A model generated the notes under the pieces. The model was not told the origin of the DNA and searched no databases. It saw nothing but the letters and a program-made list of their open reading frames with translations. The position numbers were made by a program, and so were the translations under genes. DNA of 45,880 bases from a virus (taxonomy: Duplodnaviria; Heunggongvirae; Uroviricota; Caudoviricetes). This document shows positions 3,959 through 18,476 of the stretch, one piece after another. Numbering within the stretch: the first letter of the stretch is position 1; every line of letters begins with the position of its first letter. The stretch covers positions 1-45,880 of the IMG/VR virus record IMGVR_UViG_2870484749_000003. The stretch is one strand, 5' to 3'.

Positions 3959-4645
3959 TCACTCTCCTTTGATGCGAATGCCAGCGGCGCGGGAATCATT
4001 CCATCGCTTTACTTCTTCACGAATTACGTCAATGCATTCTTTCGAATCCATTAGGTAATCTTCATCAAAAAGCCTTTCCTGTTCGTTTTCTATCGCAACA
4101 ATGATTGCTTCAACTAACTTTTGTGCCTGAGAACCACTTTCTAACTCTGCAATGCGCTTCTCTGCGGCTTCCAGCTTCTCGCGCATATCGTCAACGTACT
4201 CGACCAGAGATCCGCCAGCAGGAATTTCGCACTCCTCGACCAGTTGGAAGTAGATATCAGCTGCGGCCCGTGTGTTGCTATGCCTAGCGTCGCCCATCTC
4301 ACCTTCACGAAGAGCATCGCGTTCGGCGGTAAGATTGGCTATTTTGCTGTCTTTGCCTTCCAGCTCAACGCGCAGCTTCCCAACAGTAAGAGCAATATCC
4401 TCGTTCTCCTGGTCGCGGCTTTTGATGTATTGCTGGTTTCTTTCCCGTTCATCCAGAAGCGCCAGCACGGTTTCTGGTCCGGCCAGAAATTTGAAGGCGT
4501 TGAGCGCATCAATATCCACACCGTAATCTTTAAGTTCTTGTTCACTTAACAAATCATCATCAGCTGGCAACATTAACAGGCGTTCCATTGCTGGAATTGC
4601 ACGCTCTGCCTTTTCACGCAGTGCCTGATAGTTAATTTTGCTCAC
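3959..4645 (-). CDS. Ea22-like coiled-coil early protein
   Basis: Acidic, coiled-coil rich 228 aa protein in the early-left operon; family assignment from recollection only. Confidence 0.5.
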   Translation of the reverse strand: MSKINYQALREKAERAIPAMERLLMLPADDDLLSEQELKDYGVDIDALNAFKFLAGPETVLALLDERERNQQYIKSRDQENEDIALTVGKLRVELEGKDSKIANLTAERDALREGEMGDARHSNTRAAADIYFQLVEECEIPAGGSLVEYVDDMREKLEAAEKRIAELESGSQAQKLVEAIIVAIENEQERLFDEDYLMDSKECIDVIREEVKRWNDSRAAGIRIKGE

Positions 4646-5117
4646 TGGTCGCCTCCTTCATAAAAATAATCCAGTGGGTCTTGTCACCCTTTCCTGTTCG
4701 TTGACCGATAACAGGCTTTCTGTCGGTCAGTGCCAATATCTGGCGAACAGGTATTTGCGTTTCATTCCATTTAAAAATCAGAACGCCGTATGGACGCAAC
4801 ACACGAAAGGCTTCTTTAAATCCCTGCCGCAAATCATCACGCCAGGTATCTTTATTCAGCCGTCCATATTTCTTTCCCATCCAGGCGTTATCACCAACAC
4901 GCTCAAGATGCGGAGGGTCGAATACAACAACCGGAAACGATGCGTCTGCAAATGGTAATGCACGAAAATCTGCTATCAGGTCAGGGCTAATTATCAGCCG
5001 TCGCCCATCACACAATGTGTGCTCTTCCTTTCTGATATCGCCAAATATCGCCCGGTCGTCCTTCTTATCGAACCAGAACATGCGACTGCCACAGCACATG
5101 TCGAGGATTGACTGCAT
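4632..5117 (-). CDS. putative SAM-dependent methyltransferase (small, phage-type)
   Basis: DMCCGSRMF (motif I-like) and FDPPH (motif IV-like) in a 161 aa protein. Confidence 0.55.
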   Translation of the reverse strand: MQSILDMCCGSRMFWFDKKDDRAIFGDIRKEEHTLCDGRRLIISPDLIADFRALPFADASFPVVVFDPPHLERVGDNAWMGKKYGRLNKDTWRDDLRQGFKEAFRVLRPYGVLIFKWNETQIPVRQILALTDRKPVIGQRTGKGDKTHWIIFMKEATSEQN

Positions 5118-12739: not shown

Positions 12740-12756
12740 TTTTGTGGAGAAAGTTG

Positions 12757-13110
12757 ATGCGTGATATGTATGAAGTTTTGGACCGCTGGGGGGCATGGGC
12801 TGCTGCAGAAAACAGTGGTGTGGACTGGCAACCGGTAGCTGCTGGCTTCAAGCGGCTTTTACCTCATGGCAGAAAGTCCCGGATTCAGTGCGATGATGAT
12901 GAGGGCATCATAATAGACGGTTGTGTCGCTAGGTTGCGTAAATACAAGCCGGCAGAGTATGAGCTGATAATTGCTCACTTTGTTGTTGGCATTTCGCTCC
13001 GTACAATTGCAAAGAAGCGGAAATGTTCAGACGGAACAGTTCGAAAAGATATGCAAACAGCTATGGGGTTTATTGATGGATGCTTGTCATTTTTTTATTT
13101 AATACAATGA
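12757..13110 (+). CDS. putative late antitermination protein Q (small QuuD-like family)
   Basis: 117 aa from the ATG with GGAGA RBS; HTH-like ELIIAHFVVGISLRTIAKKRKCSDGTVRKDM; position between nin-type genes and the late/lysis region. Confidence 0.5.
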   Translation: MRDMYEVLDRWGAWAAAENSGVDWQPVAAGFKRLLPHGRKSRIQCDDDEGIIIDGCVARLRKYKPAEYELIIAHFVVGISLRTIAKKRKCSDGTVRKDMQTAMGFIDGCLSFFYLIQ

Positions 13111-13189
13111 GTTAAGTGCTATGTAAAATCATTCTACTTTCCCAACTTTTATGTGTATATAATACCAGGGTAAAGTAACGGAGAATCTT

Positions 13190-14230
13190 GTGAACATTCA
13201 AGCAGTAGACATTTTTTGTGGCGCAGGGGGCTTAACTTTTGGGCTAAAAAAAGCCGGGATTGAAGTTTCTCATGGCATTGATATTGATGAGTCCTGCCGT
13301 TTCGCTATTGAGAGCAATAATCCCTTAACGAAGTTCATTAACCAGTCAGTTACTGAACTGCAATCCAGCGATGTGTCTGCTATGTTCAAGGAAGGAAATA
13401 TTAGATTACTTGCAGGCTGTGCCCCTTGCCAACCGTTTTCCAAGTATCGTAATCCAAATAGCAGAAAAGATGATACAAAGTGGCGTCTTTTATCTGAGTT
13501 TCAGAGGATTGTAAGTGATGTCATGCCAGAGCTTGTGACTATGGAAAATGTTCCTCAACTTAGAAATCATAAGGTTTTTGAAGAGTTTGTTAGTGTATTA
13601 AAGACTCTTGGGTATCATCTGTGGTACGACGTTGTAAAATGTTCCGAGTATGGCTTGCCTCAAAATAGACGTAGATTAATTCTAATTGGGTCCATATTGG
13701 GGCCAATCAGCCTTGATCAAAAAAAAGTAAGCCGTAAAGTTACAGTAAAGGATGCTATTGGTCAGTTGCCAAAAATAGGTGCAGGGGAGAAACTCGAAAG
13801 TGATCCATTGCATCGTTCGCCTAAATTAAGGGATATTAACCTTAAACGAATCTTGCACTCTTTACCAGGTGGTACGTGGGATGATTGGCCTGAAGAAATT
13901 AGAGCGGATTGCCATAAAAAGCATTCAGGTGCTACCTATAAAAGTGTTTATGGACGGATGGTTTGGGACGATACTAGTCCTACAATAACTACCCAATGTT
14001 ATGGATATGGTAATGGGCGATTCGGACATCCTGAGCAAAATAGAGCAATAACTTTGCGTGAAGCTGCTATTTTACAATCTTTTCCTATGGATTATAAATT
14101 TATTGGAAAAAATACGCCTTTTTCATTCCAAAAGTTAGGAACGATGATTGGTAATGCTGTTCCCCCTATAATTGGCCAAGTAATAGGGAGAACGTTTGTT
14201 AGGCATGTTGAGGGGATAAATATCCGTTAG
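13190..14230 (+). CDS. DNA (cytosine-5)-methyltransferase (Dcm-like)
   Basis: Canonical C5-MTase motifs: FCGAGG (I), GCAPCQPFS (IV, catalytic PC), ENV (VI), QNRRR (VIII), GNAVPP (X); GTG start with GGAG RBS; AT-rich by eye. Confidence 0.9.
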   Translation: MNIQAVDIFCGAGGLTFGLKKAGIEVSHGIDIDESCRFAIESNNPLTKFINQSVTELQSSDVSAMFKEGNIRLLAGCAPCQPFSKYRNPNSRKDDTKWRLLSEFQRIVSDVMPELVTMENVPQLRNHKVFEEFVSVLKTLGYHLWYDVVKCSEYGLPQNRRRLILIGSILGPISLDQKKVSRKVTVKDAIGQLPKIGAGEKLESDPLHRSPKLRDINLKRILHSLPGGTWDDWPEEIRADCHKKHSGATYKSVYGRMVWDDTSPTITTQCYGYGNGRFGHPEQNRAITLREAAILQSFPMDYKFIGKNTPFSFQKLGTMIGNAVPPIIGQVIGRTFVRHVEGINIR

Positions 14231-14888
14231 AGATAATATAATCTTCAGTTGAGTTTATTAATAAACGAAGATATAGATCAACTCTCTCTGCTCTAGACTT
14301 AACTTCTTCTAAGGGGTCAATTTGCCCCTTTTTAGAGAAGCTAGTACTTCCATGCGCGAGTTCGTTTCTGATATCCTTAAGCAAGTCTAAGTCAATACCA
14401 TTTCTACATTCAGGTGAGTTTGCGATAGTTATTCCGTAAGCCTGCGTTATTTTGTGTAATACAGGCTTGCAAACATTACCATTGAATTCTTTACGAATAT
14501 TCAATGAGGCTGAAATTATTCTTTTGGAAATGTCAGTGCCTATCTTTTTATAAAGGGATTGCCCTGTTTCATTATCTGAAACAATTCTATGTAATATATT
14601 TACTTGAAGCTTCTCCCTGAGTGATGCGTAATTCACCTCATTATCTTGTAAATGATCATAAATTGACTCGATGCAACCTCTGGCAGTATTTTCAACTTGA
14701 TTATATAGCATCATATGAACGGATGATTTTAAAATATTTACCCTTAGGATATTAGATTCTATTTCATCTTGATGCGCTTGCGGATCTAACTGCTGAGTAT
14801 GAATCTCTATAGATGATGCAAGAGAAAGCAGTTCCATAATGTCTCTTGCTCTTTCTTCATATTCATCTCGTAAATCAATTAGACTCAT
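14199..14888 (-). CDS. HEPN-like nuclease (resembles MAE_28990/MAE_18760 family)
   Basis: C-terminal Rx4H HEPN motif in DIRNELAHG; start 2 nt after the DUF262 stop; 3' end overlaps the convergent C5-MTase by 32 bp; AT-rich. Confidence 0.75.
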   Translation of the reverse strand: MSLIDLRDEYEERARDIMELLSLASSIEIHTQQLDPQAHQDEIESNILRVNILKSSVHMMLYNQVENTARGCIESIYDHLQDNEVNYASLREKLQVNILHRIVSDNETGQSLYKKIGTDISKRIISASLNIRKEFNGNVCKPVLHKITQAYGITIANSPECRNGIDLDLLKDIRNELAHGSTSFSKKGQIDPLEEVKSRAERVDLYLRLLINSTEDYIISNGYLSPQHA

Positions 14889-14890
14889 TT

Positions 14891-16051
14891 TTAAATCCCT
14901 AACAACTTATTTTTAACGTAAAAGATTCTGTTTTTTAGCTGGCTGGTATTGTTTGCACTATCAGCAGTAACAAGTGTTTCAAATTCCTCTTCAAATAGCC
15001 ATTCACCTACAGGTACGGCTGGACTCTGGAGTTGTGGGTTAGTTTTTAATGCAAGTGCAGTTCCCACGGCAATGGCTTCGTATCTGGCTCGTGGGGTGGT
15101 TTTACTTGTTGCGGTCTTTTTAAAGCCAATAGGGAAATGGGTAGCAACAAAAGCAAGCATCATTTCAAAATCATGTTTAAAATTATCAACATCTTGTTGA
15201 GTAGTCACAGCTGCTGCTTGTTCATTTAAATAATTATCAATAAAGGGACGGACAAATCCCTTATAGTTTTCTAAATCATTTAAATATGCAAAAAATCTCA
15301 AAACTAACTCACGATGATCGCCATTCGACCGTTTCCGGTCTGATAATGGAGCTAGTTGGGAAAAAAGTGAGTTTGTTGAGCATGGGGTCACAACATCTTT
15401 ATAGAACATTGAGGTAGCAGCATCTGAGCCATGCCTCACTTCCATCGCTTCTAATCTTTTAACACCTGAGTTGATCCTTTCAAATAAATCTCTTCTATGT
15501 TGTTCCTCAACATCACCTTTCAACTCAATAAATCTTAGTGAAGCTCTTAAAAATCTTCTTTGGCGGCTAGCTAAAAGATCTGAAAATTTGAAACCTTCTA
15601 AACTTTTAAGCTCTTTCAAATCCTTTAACTCAAATTGATCGTTCCAAAAATAATAAATAGAGCGTATCCGTTGTGAACCATCAATGATTTCTACCCTACC
15701 ATCTAATTCAGGGTCTTCATTAAATACATCAGCAATGTAAAGGTAAGGTATTGGAAAGTCTAATAGAATACTTTCTATAAAGCGAGAGGCTGTTTTTGTA
15801 TCCCACTTGTAATCACGTTGATAATCTGGAATAAAAAGCTCGTTTTTGTCATTTTCAATATTATCACCATACTTTTGAATAATGACTTCAACGGTCCACT
15901 CACGTACATTGTATCCAATGTTTCTCTGAGCGAGTCTGATTTCATTGTCAGCGGAAGCGGTTAAAGCTGCAATTTCAGCCTTTTTTCTGTTCTTAGCGTG
16001 TTCATCTTGTATCTGAGCAAGCTCTTCTTTGAGTTCTTTGAGTGTAGTCAT
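14891..16051 (-). CDS. DUF262 (ParB/Srx-like) domain protein
   Basis: IPDYQRDYKW and IDGSQR (DGQQR-type) DUF262 signatures; AAGGAA RBS; no recognisable DUF1524/HNH C-terminal domain; AT-rich. Confidence 0.8.
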   Translation of the reverse strand: MTTLKELKEELAQIQDEHAKNRKKAEIAALTASADNEIRLAQRNIGYNVREWTVEVIIQKYGDNIENDKNELFIPDYQRDYKWDTKTASRFIESILLDFPIPYLYIADVFNEDPELDGRVEIIDGSQRIRSIYYFWNDQFELKDLKELKSLEGFKFSDLLASRQRRFLRASLRFIELKGDVEEQHRRDLFERINSGVKRLEAMEVRHGSDAATSMFYKDVVTPCSTNSLFSQLAPLSDRKRSNGDHRELVLRFFAYLNDLENYKGFVRPFIDNYLNEQAAAVTTQQDVDNFKHDFEMMLAFVATHFPIGFKKTATSKTTPRARYEAIAVGTALALKTNPQLQSPAVPVGEWLFEEEFETLVTADSANNTSQLKNRIFYVKNKLLGI

Positions 16052-16067
16052 GTTTTCGTTCCTTTAA

Positions 16068-16096
16068 TTGAAAGTTGATTGTAAGAAAACTATAAC
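16068..16096 (+). promoter_or_regulatory. candidate sigma70 promoter (TTGAAA-N17-TATAAC), possibly the late promoter feeding the terminator at 16152
   Basis: -35/-10 match by eye about 55 nt upstream of a strong terminator, resembling a pR'/tR' arrangement; speculative. Confidence 0.25.
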
Positions 16097-16151
16097 GCGT
16101 ACGCAAAAAGTATTGTATTGTGTTAAGAGTGGTTACTTCGCCACACAACTT

Positions 16152-16178
16152 AAACCCGCCGTCGAGCGGGTTTTTTTG
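16152..16178 (+). terminator. rho-independent terminator (candidate tR')
   Basis: cccgc-cgtcga-gcggg hairpin followed by ttttttt. Confidence 0.7.
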
Positions 16179-16299
16179 TACCTGTAAACCTGGTGCAGTA
16201 CGGTAAACACGCTGGTGGTCGTGAATACTGACTTTTTATCTTGCTGGCTTTTTAGACAAGAGTTATTGGTATGTCATGTTAACCAGAAGGAAAAAAGAC

Positions 16300-16494
16300 A
16301 TGCTAAAACAGCAAGATATGACAGAAACGGCGAAAGTTGTTTTTAATGAATTAAGCATCGAACCGGCAACAGTCGGGGAGATTGCACAAAACACATATCT
16401 TTCACGCGAACGCTGTCAGTTAATACTGACCCAGTTGGTTATGGCGGGGCTGGCAGATTACCAGTTCGGCTGTTACAGACGCCTTCAGCAATGA
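16300..16494 (+). CDS. small HTH-like protein (64 aa) upstream of the N6-methyltransferase
   Basis: AGGA RBS; helix-turn-helix-like VGEIAQNTYLSRERCQLILTQL. Confidence 0.45.
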   Translation: MLKQQDMTETAKVVFNELSIEPATVGEIAQNTYLSRERCQLILTQLVMAGLADYQFGCYRRLQQ

Positions 16495-16643
16495 AGGACT
16501 TTTAATTTGTGAAAATGGGCGGCTGGTGGGTGTTGGTAGCACCTGCCAGCCATTCGCTCATGCTTACTGGTCACAAGCGAACCACGGCCCACTGCTTTAG
16601 CGCAAAAGCAGAGTGAGCCTACCAGAGTTACGCTTACTGATCC

Positions 16644-17696
16644 ATGAAAAATACTGTAAAAATAAACAGTGTTGATTTAATCAACGCTGATTGCCTGCAT
16701 TTTATTCAGTCCCTGCCTGATGATTCCATTGACCTGATTGTTACCGATCCGCCTTACTTCAAGGTGAAACCCAACGGTTGGGACAATCAGTGGAAAGGGG
16801 ACGAAGATTACCTTAAGTGGCTGGACCACTGTCTGGCCCAGTTCTGGCGGGTGTTGAAACCTGCCGGAAGCCTTTACCTGTTCTGTGGGCATCGCCTGGC
16901 ATCTGATATTGAGATCATGATGCGTGAACGTTTCAACGTGCTTAACCATATCATCTGGGCGAAGCCGTCCGGACGTTGGAATGGGTGTAATAAAGAAAGT
17001 CTGCGCGCATATTTTCCTGCCACAGAGCGCGTTCTGTTTGCTGAACATTACCAGGGGCCATATCGCGGCAAAAGTGACGGCTATGCGGCAAAAGAAAGGG
17101 AACTCAAACAGCACATAATGGCACCGCTGATATCGTATTTCAGGGATGCTCGTGCCGAACTGGGTATAACGGCAAAACAAATTGCCGAAGCCACAGGTAA
17201 GAAAAATATGGTTTCCCACTGGTTTGGTGCCAGTCAGTGGCAGTTGCCGAATGAGGCTGACTATCGGAAGTTACAGGCACTGTTTTCCCGTATAGCGGCA
17301 GAGAAGTTTCAGGAACAACAACTGGAACAACCACACCACCAGCTGGTGGCATCTTATGATTCACTGAATCGCAAATATTCTGAATTGCTGGATGAGTTTA
17401 AATCTCTCCGGCGCTATTTCTCCGTATCAGTCTCCGTGCCTTATACCGATGTCTGGATGCATAAACCCGTTCAGTTCTACCCGGGTAAACATCCGTGTGA
17501 GAAACCGGCGGATATGCTCAGGCAAATAATCAATGCCAGTAGTCGACCTGGTGATCTGGTTGCTGATTTTTTTATGGGATCCGGTTCCACAATAAAAGCA
17601 GCAATGGCGCTGGGGCGTCGGGCCTTAGGTGTTGAGCTTGAGTCAGAGCGGTTTAACCAGACAGTGAAAGAGATAAACGAGCTGGTGGGGAAATAA
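16644..17696 (+). CDS. DNA N6-adenine (or N4-cytosine) methyltransferase, beta-class
   Basis: DPPY catalytic motif near the N-terminus and FxGSGST SAM-binding motif near the C-terminus. Confidence 0.85.
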
Positions 17697-17702
17697 TCTG
17701 GT

Positions 17703-17728
17703 GGCCACGTCAGGTGGCCTTTTTATTT
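17703..17728 (+). terminator. rho-independent terminator before the lysis genes
   Basis: ggccac-gtcag-gtggcc hairpin then tttttattt. Confidence 0.55.
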
Positions 17729-17763
17729 CCATTACACAGCACCCGCATCTGCGAGGTGGGGTT

Positions 17764-17979
17764 ATGAAATCCATGGATAAGTTAACAACGGGTGTCGCCT
17801 ATGGCACCTCAGCAGGTAGTGCCGGGTACTGGTTTTTACAGTTGCTCGATAAAGTCACGCCCTCACAGTGGGCGGCAATAGGTGTGCTGGGTAGTCTGGT
17901 ATTTGGCCTGCTGACGTACCTGACAAACCTTTATTTCAAGATTAAAGAAGATAAGCGCAAGGCTGCGAGAGGTGAATAA
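17764..17979 (+). CDS. holin, phage-21 S21-like pinholin with dual-start motif
   Basis: [71 protein letters not shown] closely resembles S21 as recalled; Met1/Met4 dual start. Confidence 0.85.
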
Positions 17980-18476
17980 TGCCTCCATCATTACGAAAAG
18001 CAGTTGCTGCTGCTATTGGTGGCGGAGCAATTGCTATAGCATCAGTGTTAATCACTGGCCCAAGTGGTGACGATGGCCTGGAAGGTGTCAGCTACATACC
18101 ATACAAAGATATCGTTGGCGTATGGACTGTATGTCACGGACACACCGGAAAAGACATCATGCTCGGTAAAACGTATACCGAAGCAGAATGCAAAGCCCTC
18201 CTGAATAAAGACCTTGCCACGGTCGCCAGACAAATTAACCCGTACATCAAAGTCGATATACCGGAAACAACGCGCGGCGCTCTTTACTCGTTCGTCTACA
18301 ACGTGGGTGCTGGCAATTTCAGAACATCGACGCTTCTTCGCAAAATAAACCAGGGCGATATCAAAGGCGCATGTGACCAGCTACGTCGCTGGACATACGC
18401 TGGCGGTAAGCAATGGAAAGGCCTGATGACTCGTCGTGAGATTGAGCGTGAAGTCTGTTTGTGGGGGCAACAATGA
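17979..18476 (+). CDS. SAR endolysin (R21-like lysozyme)
   Basis: N-terminal signal-anchor-release segment [20 protein letters not shown]; start overlaps the holin stop. Confidence 0.85.

Follow-up and report, generated by a model that had tools for sequence, protein, structure and literature searches.

The 45,880-nt stretch of DNA analyzed here (IMG/VR record IMGVR_UViG_2870484749_000003; hereafter the window) is from a lambdoid prophage, and this stretch is found identically in the prophages of several complete Escherichia coli genomes. Our subject is a plus-strand cassette (16152–17727) in which an N6-adenine methyltransferase gene is preceded by a gene for a small winged-helix protein and by a structured leader RNA, and which lies between the gene for the antiterminator Q (12742–13110, plus strand; PF06530, 5e-46) and the lysis genes. 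The cassette opens with a strong intrinsic terminator of the tR′ type (16152–16180, or 16152–16173 in the hairpin scan), consisting of AAACCCGCCGTCGAGCGGGTTT and a T-run, which is followed by a conserved motif with promoter-like geometry (16240–16275) that was located by regular expression and alignment, and by the small gene (16300–16494, 64 aa), which matches the PHROGs family phrog_331 with an E-value of 4.5e-35. A weak-to-moderate terminator made up of a hairpin and a U-tract (16482–16506; hairpin scan, 16482–16497) overlaps the stop codon of the small open reading frame (ORF), and a 149-nt spacer (16495–16643, from the ORF coordinates), within which lies the leader RNA (16516–16643), separates this ORF from the methyltransferase gene (16644–17696, 350 aa). 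The terminator scan placed a second strong intrinsic terminator at the end of the cassette (17703–17727; hairpin scan, 17703–17719), and 37 nt separate it from the start of a P21-type holin gene (17764–17979; PF04971, 4e-35), followed by the genes for lysozyme (17979–18476; PF00959, 1e-45) and then Rz and terminase, all on the plus strand; in an identical prophage RefSeq names the holin gene essD and the lysozyme gene rrrD.

A search of 5426 complete E. coli genomes with the 1.58-kb cassette as the query identified it in 1533 of them, with as many as eight copies per genome. It was also present in phages SfV, cdtI, mEp460, Ayreon and phiP27 and in Stx2a and Stx2c phages, and its position is constant, with Q/tR′ on one side and the lysis or stx genes on the other. 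For instance, the order in SfV is Q, ~100 nt, a terminator, orf47, orf48 (the methyltransferase), a terminator and the holin gene; in Ayreon two small genes lie between Q and the cassette; and in phiP27 the cassette is located between Q and the tRNA-stx2e genes. In all three phages the annotation has terminators flanking it. The tRNA genes 3′ of the phiP27 cassette raised the idea of a tRNA-like element within it, but ARAGORN found none. For wider comparisons we collected relatives of the methyltransferase from 80 loci (56–93% identity, one genome per species) in Enterobacteriaceae, Erwiniaceae, Morganellaceae and Gilliamella; counts of gene order refer to these relatives together with three phage records and the window, among which 80 loci, the window included, had enough upstream sequence. 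In the various genera the opening terminator stays in place 5′ of the small ORF, directly following Q/pR′ in SfV and in Photorhabdus/Proteus, and a perfect TTGACA promoter lies just 5′ of the equivalent terminator in the Photorhabdus, Xenorhabdus and Proteus loci. A closing terminator is annotated at the equivalent site in SfV and Ayreon. The cassette is a self-contained late-operon unit that is widespread in the lambdoid prophages of Enterobacterales.

The methyltransferase has the motif order of the beta class, with TDPPYF at residues 34–39 (DPPY at 35–38), a central target recognition domain (TRD) and FFMGSGS at residues 309–315, and its match to PF01555 (N6_N4_Mtase; 2e-42) spans residues 29–341. 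An alignment with M.EcoGII was full length, with 281 of 349 residues identical (81%) and the TRD (residues 160–237) ungapped, and the match to Anc291, an ancestral sequence reconstructed for the M.EcoGII cluster, was closer still (310 of 348 residues, 89%); as both sequences were taken from a machine-read supplement of the SUPREM study (PMC11551740) that contains a few reading errors, the true identities may be slightly higher. The enzyme also matched the PADLOC model MTase_II (PDLC03265) at 3e-152, and scored far below the cut-offs of the YhdJ (110 bits vs. 292) and CcrM (68 bits vs. 830) equivalog models. A sequence search of the PDB with the window enzyme returned distant beta-class methyltransferases only and no structure of M.EcoGII. 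M.EcoGI and M.EcoGII are prophage methyltransferases of E. coli O104:H4 strain C227-11 that modify adenine whatever its context and are silent in lysogens; M.EcoGII has full activity by itself in vitro, it is unexpressed in its native lysogen, and its constitutive expression slows growth (Murray et al. 2018, PMC5778455). All of the reconstructed ancestors, including Anc291 and Anc284, still methylate both DNA and RNA, and nanopore direct RNA sequencing showed RNA to be methylated without a sequence motif by M.EcoGII, Anc291 and SUPREM (PMC11551740); Anc284, like Anc291, is not site-specific on RNA. Homologs in O111 Shiga toxin-producing E. coli are listed as ‘nonspecific’, and the methylomes of their lysogens are without signal.

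Based on these matches, the window enzyme is a further member of the M.EcoGII family, and since its closest characterized relatives, M.EcoGII and Anc291, are non-specific, it most probably methylates adenine in any sequence context; the name it carries at NCBI, ‘site-specific DNA-methyltransferase’, is probably wrong. That name would fit a different explanation, in which the host chromosome of a lysogen is marked at a new motif by a site-specific orphan methyltransferase under a controller resembling a C-protein. The PF01555 fold is indeed common to site-specific beta-class enzymes such as RsrI, MboIIA and CcrM, and a small gene of helix-turn-helix (HTH) type does precede the methyltransferase. 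However, the characterized relatives at 81–89% identity are non-specific, the YhdJ and CcrM scores are far too low, members of the M.EcoGII family are silent in lysogens, and the small protein, as described below, is poorly suited to the part of controller, so we regard this explanation as highly improbable.

With respect to transcription, the terminator scan identified three terminator-like hairpins in the cassette (one 5′ of the small gene, one at the stop codon of that gene and one 3′ of the methyltransferase), and a sigma-70 consensus scan identified no promoter-like site inside it. The terminator at the stop codon of the small ORF takes a stronger form in phiP27 (GCCTTCCGCAGTGAAGGCTTTTTTATTT), and T-rich tracts lie 5′ of the leader in most loci. 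Because terminators bracket the cassette and no promoter-like site was found within, its expression would be late and Q-dependent: only Q-modified, terminator-resistant RNA polymerase coming from pR′ would transcribe it. We infer that the methyltransferase is silent in a lysogen of this prophage, which is consistent with the flanking terminators, the lack of a promoter-like site and the sequestered start described below.

An initial annotation of the window had proposed a beta-class DPPY methyltransferase in the late operon, after a candidate tR′ terminator and before the holin, and this placement is confirmed by PF01555, the terminator scan and the gene order in SfV; the name tR′ is right in the family sense, given the loci in which the terminator follows Q directly. 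The same annotation had expected a target specificity that could be assigned, an expectation at odds with the fact that the tested members of the M.EcoGII family methylate adenine in any context. Of the two purposes that it suggested, anti-restriction is likely, and epigenetic manipulation of the host is unlikely in view of the silence of M.EcoGI and M.EcoGII in lysogens and of a cassette with terminators and no promoter-like site.

Small winged-helix gene and the motif before it

The small ORF can be read from an upstream in-frame ATG at 16276, giving 72 aa, or from the start conserved among homologs at 16300, which is preceded by AAGGA and gives 64 aa. An ORF of this kind lies directly 5′ of the methyltransferase in 58 of the 80 loci (window included), with lengths of 62–71 aa, mostly 63–67, and with the signature of an N-terminal MLKQxDMT plus RCQL(I/L)LTQ..AGL. 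We also examined gene order in the reverse direction, starting from 80 viral contigs found with the small protein, 78 of which have room downstream: the methyltransferase was downstream in 75 of these, and in 73 it lay 150–155 nt 3′ of the small gene. The residues that are invariant in the protein (alignment columns T8, A11, C40, L44, Q46 and A50) are encoded by varied codons, and dN/dS within allele types is 0.04–0.21. On the strength of its conserved position, these varied codons and the low dN/dS, the small ORF is a protein-coding gene under purifying selection; its first eight codons (16300–16323) show almost no synonymous change. A palindrome within the ORF, GTCAGTTAATACTGAC, which encodes CQLILTQ, was considered as a DNA element and rejected, as its synonymous codons vary freely across genera. 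On one IMG/VR contig (L128, 3204–4048) an AraC-family gene stands in place of the methyltransferase directly after the small gene, with a degraded copy of the leader persisting (45 bits), which shows that the slot can exchange its cargo.

The best AlphaFold2 model of the small protein (predicted local distance difference test score 85.8, with the four other models lower) is a winged helix consisting of helix 1, a strand, helices 2 and 3, and a hairpin wing, and conservation within the protein is greatest in helix 3, which in such folds usually serves for recognition. Foldseek matched it to the DNA-binding domains of IclR and MarR (TM-score 0.77–0.84, E-values of about 4e-3), matches that are weak and generic, and, again weakly, to the N-terminal winged helix of O-methyltransferases and to the SECIS-RNA-binding winged helices of SelB. 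Pfam matches were below threshold (DprA_WH, and TrmB with 16.4 bits vs. a cut-off of 25.6), the label ‘TrmB family regulator’ on the gene is unsupported, and phrog_331 is a family of unknown function. When a profile of the small protein was searched against 1.84 billion proteins it retrieved 82 clusters, 80 of them stand-alone proteins of no more than 114 aa, and there was no convincing domain fusion among the 82; two long proteins (1264 and 1681 aa) with short partial matches were taken as spurious unchecked.

The HTH-like ORF of the initial annotation is a genuine gene of winged-helix type, as judged by its predicted fold and dN/dS, and is linked to the methyltransferase by gene order; it is conserved with the methyltransferase among relatives in the proportions given above; the further suggestion that it encodes a controller-type regulator fared less well. 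C-proteins of restriction-modification systems have an Xre-type HTH, are co-transcribed with a nuclease and act at palindromic C-boxes upstream. The small protein gave no HTH_3 match and is a winged helix, not an Xre-type HTH; the locus has neither a cognate restriction enzyme nor a co-transcribed nuclease; and no C-box was found, the region 16175–16300 containing no conserved dyad and its one conserved motif being asymmetric.

This motif (16240–16275) has the consensus CTTGCTG-N10-nnAGAGTTAYnTGnRTGTCA, that is, TTGCTG, 17 nt and TAYnTG, and lies 25–35 nt 5′ of the small gene. A regular expression for its commonest form matched 48 of the 57 related loci that have the small ORF, and it matched no locus lacking that ORF; the type found in the window and a few other variants differ from this form at two or three positions of the alignment. 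A reading of the motif as coding (‘LAG..QSYLYV’) was rejected, as its frame relative to the small ORF shifts between loci and there is no start codon. In the window, positions 16237–46 are complementary (10 of 10) to 16309–18, a pairing that is lost in Morganellaceae.

These features bear on an explanation in which the small protein is a DNA-binding transcription factor that acts on an autoregulated or activator-dependent promoter at 16240–16275, with the leader being a fixed, unregulated damper. The motif and the small gene co-occur and are never found apart, the fixed 17-nt spacing resembles that of a −35/−10 pair at a suitable distance from the ATG, RNAalifold found no consensus structure in the small gene's own leader, and both the IclR and MarR matches and the conservation of helix 3 would suit a DNA-binding protein. 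On the other hand, the −10-like box is without the T6 of the sigma-70 consensus and there was no sigma-70 match, no dyad symmetry is shared by the genera, most alleles of the small protein are neutral or acidic, which counts against a DNA-binding role, and the protein has no dimerization or effector domain, its relatives all being stand-alone proteins of ~65 aa. We consider this explanation a real possibility, although on the whole an unlikely one.

The charge of the alleles would fit with a role in protein contacts, in which the small protein might tune or restrain the dimeric methyltransferase, or shield phage DNA rich in N6-methyladenine (m6A) from methylation-dependent (type IV) nucleases of the next host. 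Such a role might also be suggested by the strongly conserved N-terminal peptide MLKQxDMT, which is predicted with low confidence, by the top Foldseek matches being to winged-helix dimerization domains of methyltransferases, and by the diversity of alleles in helices 1–2 and the wing against a constant methyltransferase and flanks, a pattern resembling an arms race; in addition, prokaryotic winged helices are known as m6A sensors. However, the Foldseek E-values are weak (1e-3 at best) and generic for winged helices, and M.EcoGII, fully active alone, needs no partner in vitro, and we find this role for the small protein improbable.

Leader RNA before the methyltransferase start

In our first alignment the non-coding DNA of the cassette was more conserved than the small ORF. 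An alignment of 42 distinct spacers made with MAFFT gave, by RNAalifold, a consensus structure in which a long-range helix, P1 (UGGGC/GCCCA, 16516–20 with 16587–91), encloses a 12-bp hairpin, P2 (16521–32 with 16540–51), and a short hairpin, P3 (16555–58 with 16576–79), and is followed by a hairpin P4 (16594–98 with 16605–09), all on the plus strand. In the aligned sequences 94.4% of the cells of this structure are paired, vs. 25–45% when the partners are slid by one to three columns, and 12 pairs show compensatory changes, the observed values being matched in none of 500 shuffles. P1, for example, appears as UGAGC/GCUCA in one Mixta sequence and as UGGGG/CCCCA in Gilliamella; P3 takes the forms CGCU/AGCG, AGCU/AGCU, UGCU/AGCA, CCGU/ACGG and AUAC/GUAU; and in Proteus and Gilliamella other bases re-form P2. 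The leader is a conserved structured RNA supported by covariation.

A second set of pairings competes with this structure. The P3 loop GGUCA (16569–16573) pairs with UGAUC at −6 to −2 of the methyltransferase AUG (16638–42), and one pair of this start-site helix appears as G.U, A-U or G-C across the alignment, a series that is valid for plus-strand RNA only. Furthermore AAGCG (16575–16579) can pair, with covariation, with CGCUU at −13 to −9 (16631–35), which excludes P3, and an extension of P4 (GGCCCAC/GUGAGCC) excludes P1. The leader is thus predicted to have two mutually exclusive folds, an open one with the P1-P2-P3 junction and P4, and a closed one that buries positions −13 to −2. Unconstrained folding by minimum free energy (MFE) gives the closed fold for 38 of the 42 homologs; this fold has a mean of −53.2 kcal/mol vs. 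−47.2 kcal/mol for the open fold, and the MFE of the window leader has a z-score of −3.6 relative to shuffles. The methyltransferase AUG has no Shine-Dalgarno sequence at canonical spacing, while the small gene has AAGGA. We infer from the predicted folds that the leader keeps translation of the methyltransferase low by default.

A covariance model of the leader matched 49 of 84 sources, with one copy per locus, on the plus strand and abutting the methyltransferase start; the matches included loci without the small gene, and there were none elsewhere in the 84 sources. A group of Photorhabdus and Xenorhabdus loci (L044–L076) keeps the small gene and the motif, with a shorter spacer in which, about 77–100 nt before the methyltransferase start, a terminator-like hairpin and one small hairpin take the place of the four helices, and which has no match to the covariance model. 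Searches of Rfam 15 without gathering thresholds identified no match in 13000–18000 of the window at E-values of 1 or less, and those with 16150–16670 (521 nt) at 10 or less returned generic terminator-type hits at 16150–16213 and two weak hits to snoRNA models; one of the latter, to TtnuCD6 (16465–16528, E-value 8, 15.5 bits), extends 13 nt into the 5′ end of the leader, an overlap put down to chance.

The spacer of 130 nt might alternatively be kept for a reason at the level of DNA, such as its Chi sites or a recombination joint of the lambdoid mosaic, and not as RNA. A Chi octamer (GCTGGTGG) at 16522, which is also the 5′ arm of P2, is kept at −122 in nearly all Enterobacteriaceae loci, and Chi octamers number 13 on the plus strand vs. 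one on the minus strand over the whole window. In Proteus and Gilliamella, however, Chi is lost and the hairpin is kept through compensatory changes, and neither the double changes at 12 leader pairs, nor the G.U pairs, which are meaningful on plus-strand RNA only, nor the recurrence of the MFE structure would be expected from selection on DNA, leaving this explanation with very little to recommend it.

Other methyltransferases, nuclease genes and Chi sites

The prophage carries three DNA methyltransferases, and all three that were put forward in the initial annotation proved to be real by Pfam, PHROG and PADLOC matches. Besides the adenine methyltransferase (16644–17696) these are a C5-cytosine DNA methyltransferase (13190–14230, plus strand; PF00145, 3e-54; TIGR00675) and a small amino-methyltransferase of 161 aa (phrog_954, 5e-88), which had been placed at 4632–5117; it is a true methyltransferase, encoded at 4635–5117 on the minus strand in the early-left region. 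In the translation of this small enzyme motif I (DMCCGS) comes before motif IV (DPPH), its PADLOC matches were to MTase_II (2e-75) and oMTase (3e-50), and its phage homologs are annotated as DNA methyltransferases. Its closest deposited relatives are from an Stx2c phage (94%), and those at 47–65%, some of them annotated as N4-cytosine methyltransferases, are from phages of Gordonia, Acinetobacter, Staphylococcus, Streptococcus and Vibrio, an unusually broad spread of hosts.

The C5-methyltransferase gene belongs to a 3-kb insert that parts Q from the terminator at 16152 in the window, together with two predicted nuclease genes on the minus strand identified by Pfam, a HEPN gene of MAE_28990 type (14199–14888) and a DUF262/GmrSD_N gene (14891–16051). 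Eight of 80 IMG/VR loci had this unit intact, as one or other of two variants (about 90–93% amino-acid identity), and it had no match in the deposited phage collection at the level of megablast; its PADLOC matches were NsnA/PD-T4-2_A-like and DrmMII-like. Lying between Q and tR′, it is probably a moron with a function in defense. The statement that the adenine methyltransferase has no adjacent nuclease holds insofar as there is no cognate restriction enzyme; it fails in that the HEPN and DUF262 genes are directly upstream of the cassette, on the opposite strand and behind the terminator, where they travel with the C5-methyltransferase. Read directly from the sequence, a TATAAT at 13158–13163, in the 80-nt gap 3′ of Q, is a candidate −10 element of pR′, and there is no terminator between it and the C5-methyltransferase gene. 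If this TATAAT is pR′, transcription of the C5-methyltransferase would be constitutive and need no Q, in contrast to that of the adenine methyltransferase behind its terminator.

Four of the Chi octamers are within the 1.5-kb cassette (16211, 16522, 17342 and 17681). The orientation of the octamers in the 45.9-kb window fits with protection from RecBCD entry at the cos-proximal (right) end.

Proposed control of the methyltransferase and comparison with known systems

The best explanation for the cassette, and one that we consider reasonably probable, is that it encodes an anti-restriction enzyme that is expressed only late and is throttled in translation. Immediately ahead of packaging, the enzyme would cover freshly replicated phage DNA with m6A, and the progeny would evade many restriction systems that are blocked by m6A within their sites. 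Because such an enzyme harms the host, it would be placed under a double control, at transcription and at translation. The throttle at translation would lie in the closed fold of the leader, which buries −13 to −2, and the three-way junction would free the start region; some factor would stabilize the open fold, and the small protein is a candidate for it. As a conjecture by analogy, the 64-aa protein is most likely a positive or timing regulator of methyltransferase expression, analogous and not homologous to the Com protein of phage Mu. A more specific version, in which the leader would be a two-state riboregulator and the winged-helix protein an RNA-binding activator that stabilizes the P1-P2-P3 junction and so frees the start, we put forward tentatively and think rather unlikely in this exact form; in a variant of it, the junction may sense a small molecule such as S-adenosylmethionine.

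Several observations weigh against a late, throttled anti-restriction cassette with the small protein as its regulator. The 19% divergence from M.EcoGII could in principle conceal a specificity. It is the position of the cassette that speaks for late, Q-dependent expression, and the promoter-like geometry at 16240–16275 means that the small gene may have a promoter of its own. About a quarter of the methyltransferase loci keep the leader and lack the small gene, so that expression of the methyltransferase cannot depend strictly on the small protein; the Photorhabdus and Xenorhabdus loci pair the small gene with a shorter, different leader. The methyltransferase protein of Ayreon is identical to that of the window, yet the small proteins are only ~50% identical, and more generally the alleles of the small gene differ sharply in helices 1–2 and the wing where the methyltransferase, leader and flanking DNA are constant. 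Finally, the net neutral or acidic charge of most alleles would be unusual for a nucleic-acid binder.

The methyltransferase itself is a very common and already characterized kind of phage enzyme. As far as the literature consulted and Rfam show, what is new is the control architecture, with its conserved partner gene and above all its covarying two-state leader RNA. The M.EcoGII and SUPREM papers and a review of the beta class do not describe any Q/terminator context, small gene upstream or leader RNA, and a literature search returned nothing on EcoGII in a lambdoid late setting. M.EcoGII has found wide use as a reagent in tools for chromatin accessibility and RNA methylation, and it is a textbook example of the ‘methylate everything’ strategy of phage anti-restriction; how phages silence an enzyme of this type and switch it on is undescribed, the papers stating only that it is ‘transcriptionally silent’ in lysogens. 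The architecture found here provides a testable scheme of control, made up of terminator insulation, a start-sequestering leader that has a second possible fold, and a small protein as dedicated partner, for a cassette carried by over a quarter of the complete E. coli genomes and located upstream of stx in some Shiga-toxin phages.

The window enzyme and M.EcoGII are alike in family, length, motif order (DPPY, central TRD, FxGxG) and carriage by a prophage, and the locus closest to M.EcoGII in our set (L011, 94.6% identity) shares both the small gene and the leader with the window; the two enzymes differ at 19% of residues, and the activity of the window allele is assigned by homology. With C-proteins, the small protein shares its size, its HTH-type fold and a gene beside that of a DNA methyltransferase, and it differs in being a non-Xre winged helix encoded in a phage late operon, without a restriction gene or C-box operator. 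The leader resembles start-sequestering riboswitches in having two exclusive covarying folds, one pairing the region just 5′ of the AUG and the other forming a three-way junction, and differs from riboswitches and riboregulators in that it matches no Rfam family and that its switching between folds is a prediction.

The closest parallel is with com-mom of phage Mu. From the work of Hattman and Kahmann, the start of mom is reportedly locked in an mRNA stem-loop that Com opens. Com is encoded just upstream of the harmful modification gene mom (PMC6483171), and in Mu-like prophages of Haemophilus and Neisseria (PMC3299994) mom is replaced by genes for the non-specific adenine methyltransferases Hia5 and Hin1523, with com and putative Com sites kept. 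The com-mom and com-hia5 operons are like the cassette in having a late, host-harmful, broadly acting anti-restriction enzyme that modifies adenine, with the gene for a regulator of ~40–65 aa immediately upstream in the operon, and the likeness to FluMu-type prophages extends to the enzyme itself being a non-specific adenine methyltransferase (PMC3299994). The differences are that Com is a four-cysteine zinc finger, whereas the window protein is a winged helix with one invariant cysteine (position 39 of 64 aa), and we rejected its membership in the Com family for want of such a finger (about 40–62 aa); that Hia5 is an alpha-class, Dam-like enzyme and the window methyltransferase a beta-class one; that mom has a single stem-loop, in contrast to a 130-nt leader with multiple helices; and that about a quarter of M.EcoGII-type loci are without the small gene, activation by the small protein being conjectural. 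If the leader and the small protein work as proposed, the problem for which Mu employs Com would have been solved a second time by independent evolution, and the small protein would be a lambdoid counterpart of Mu Com built from a winged helix.

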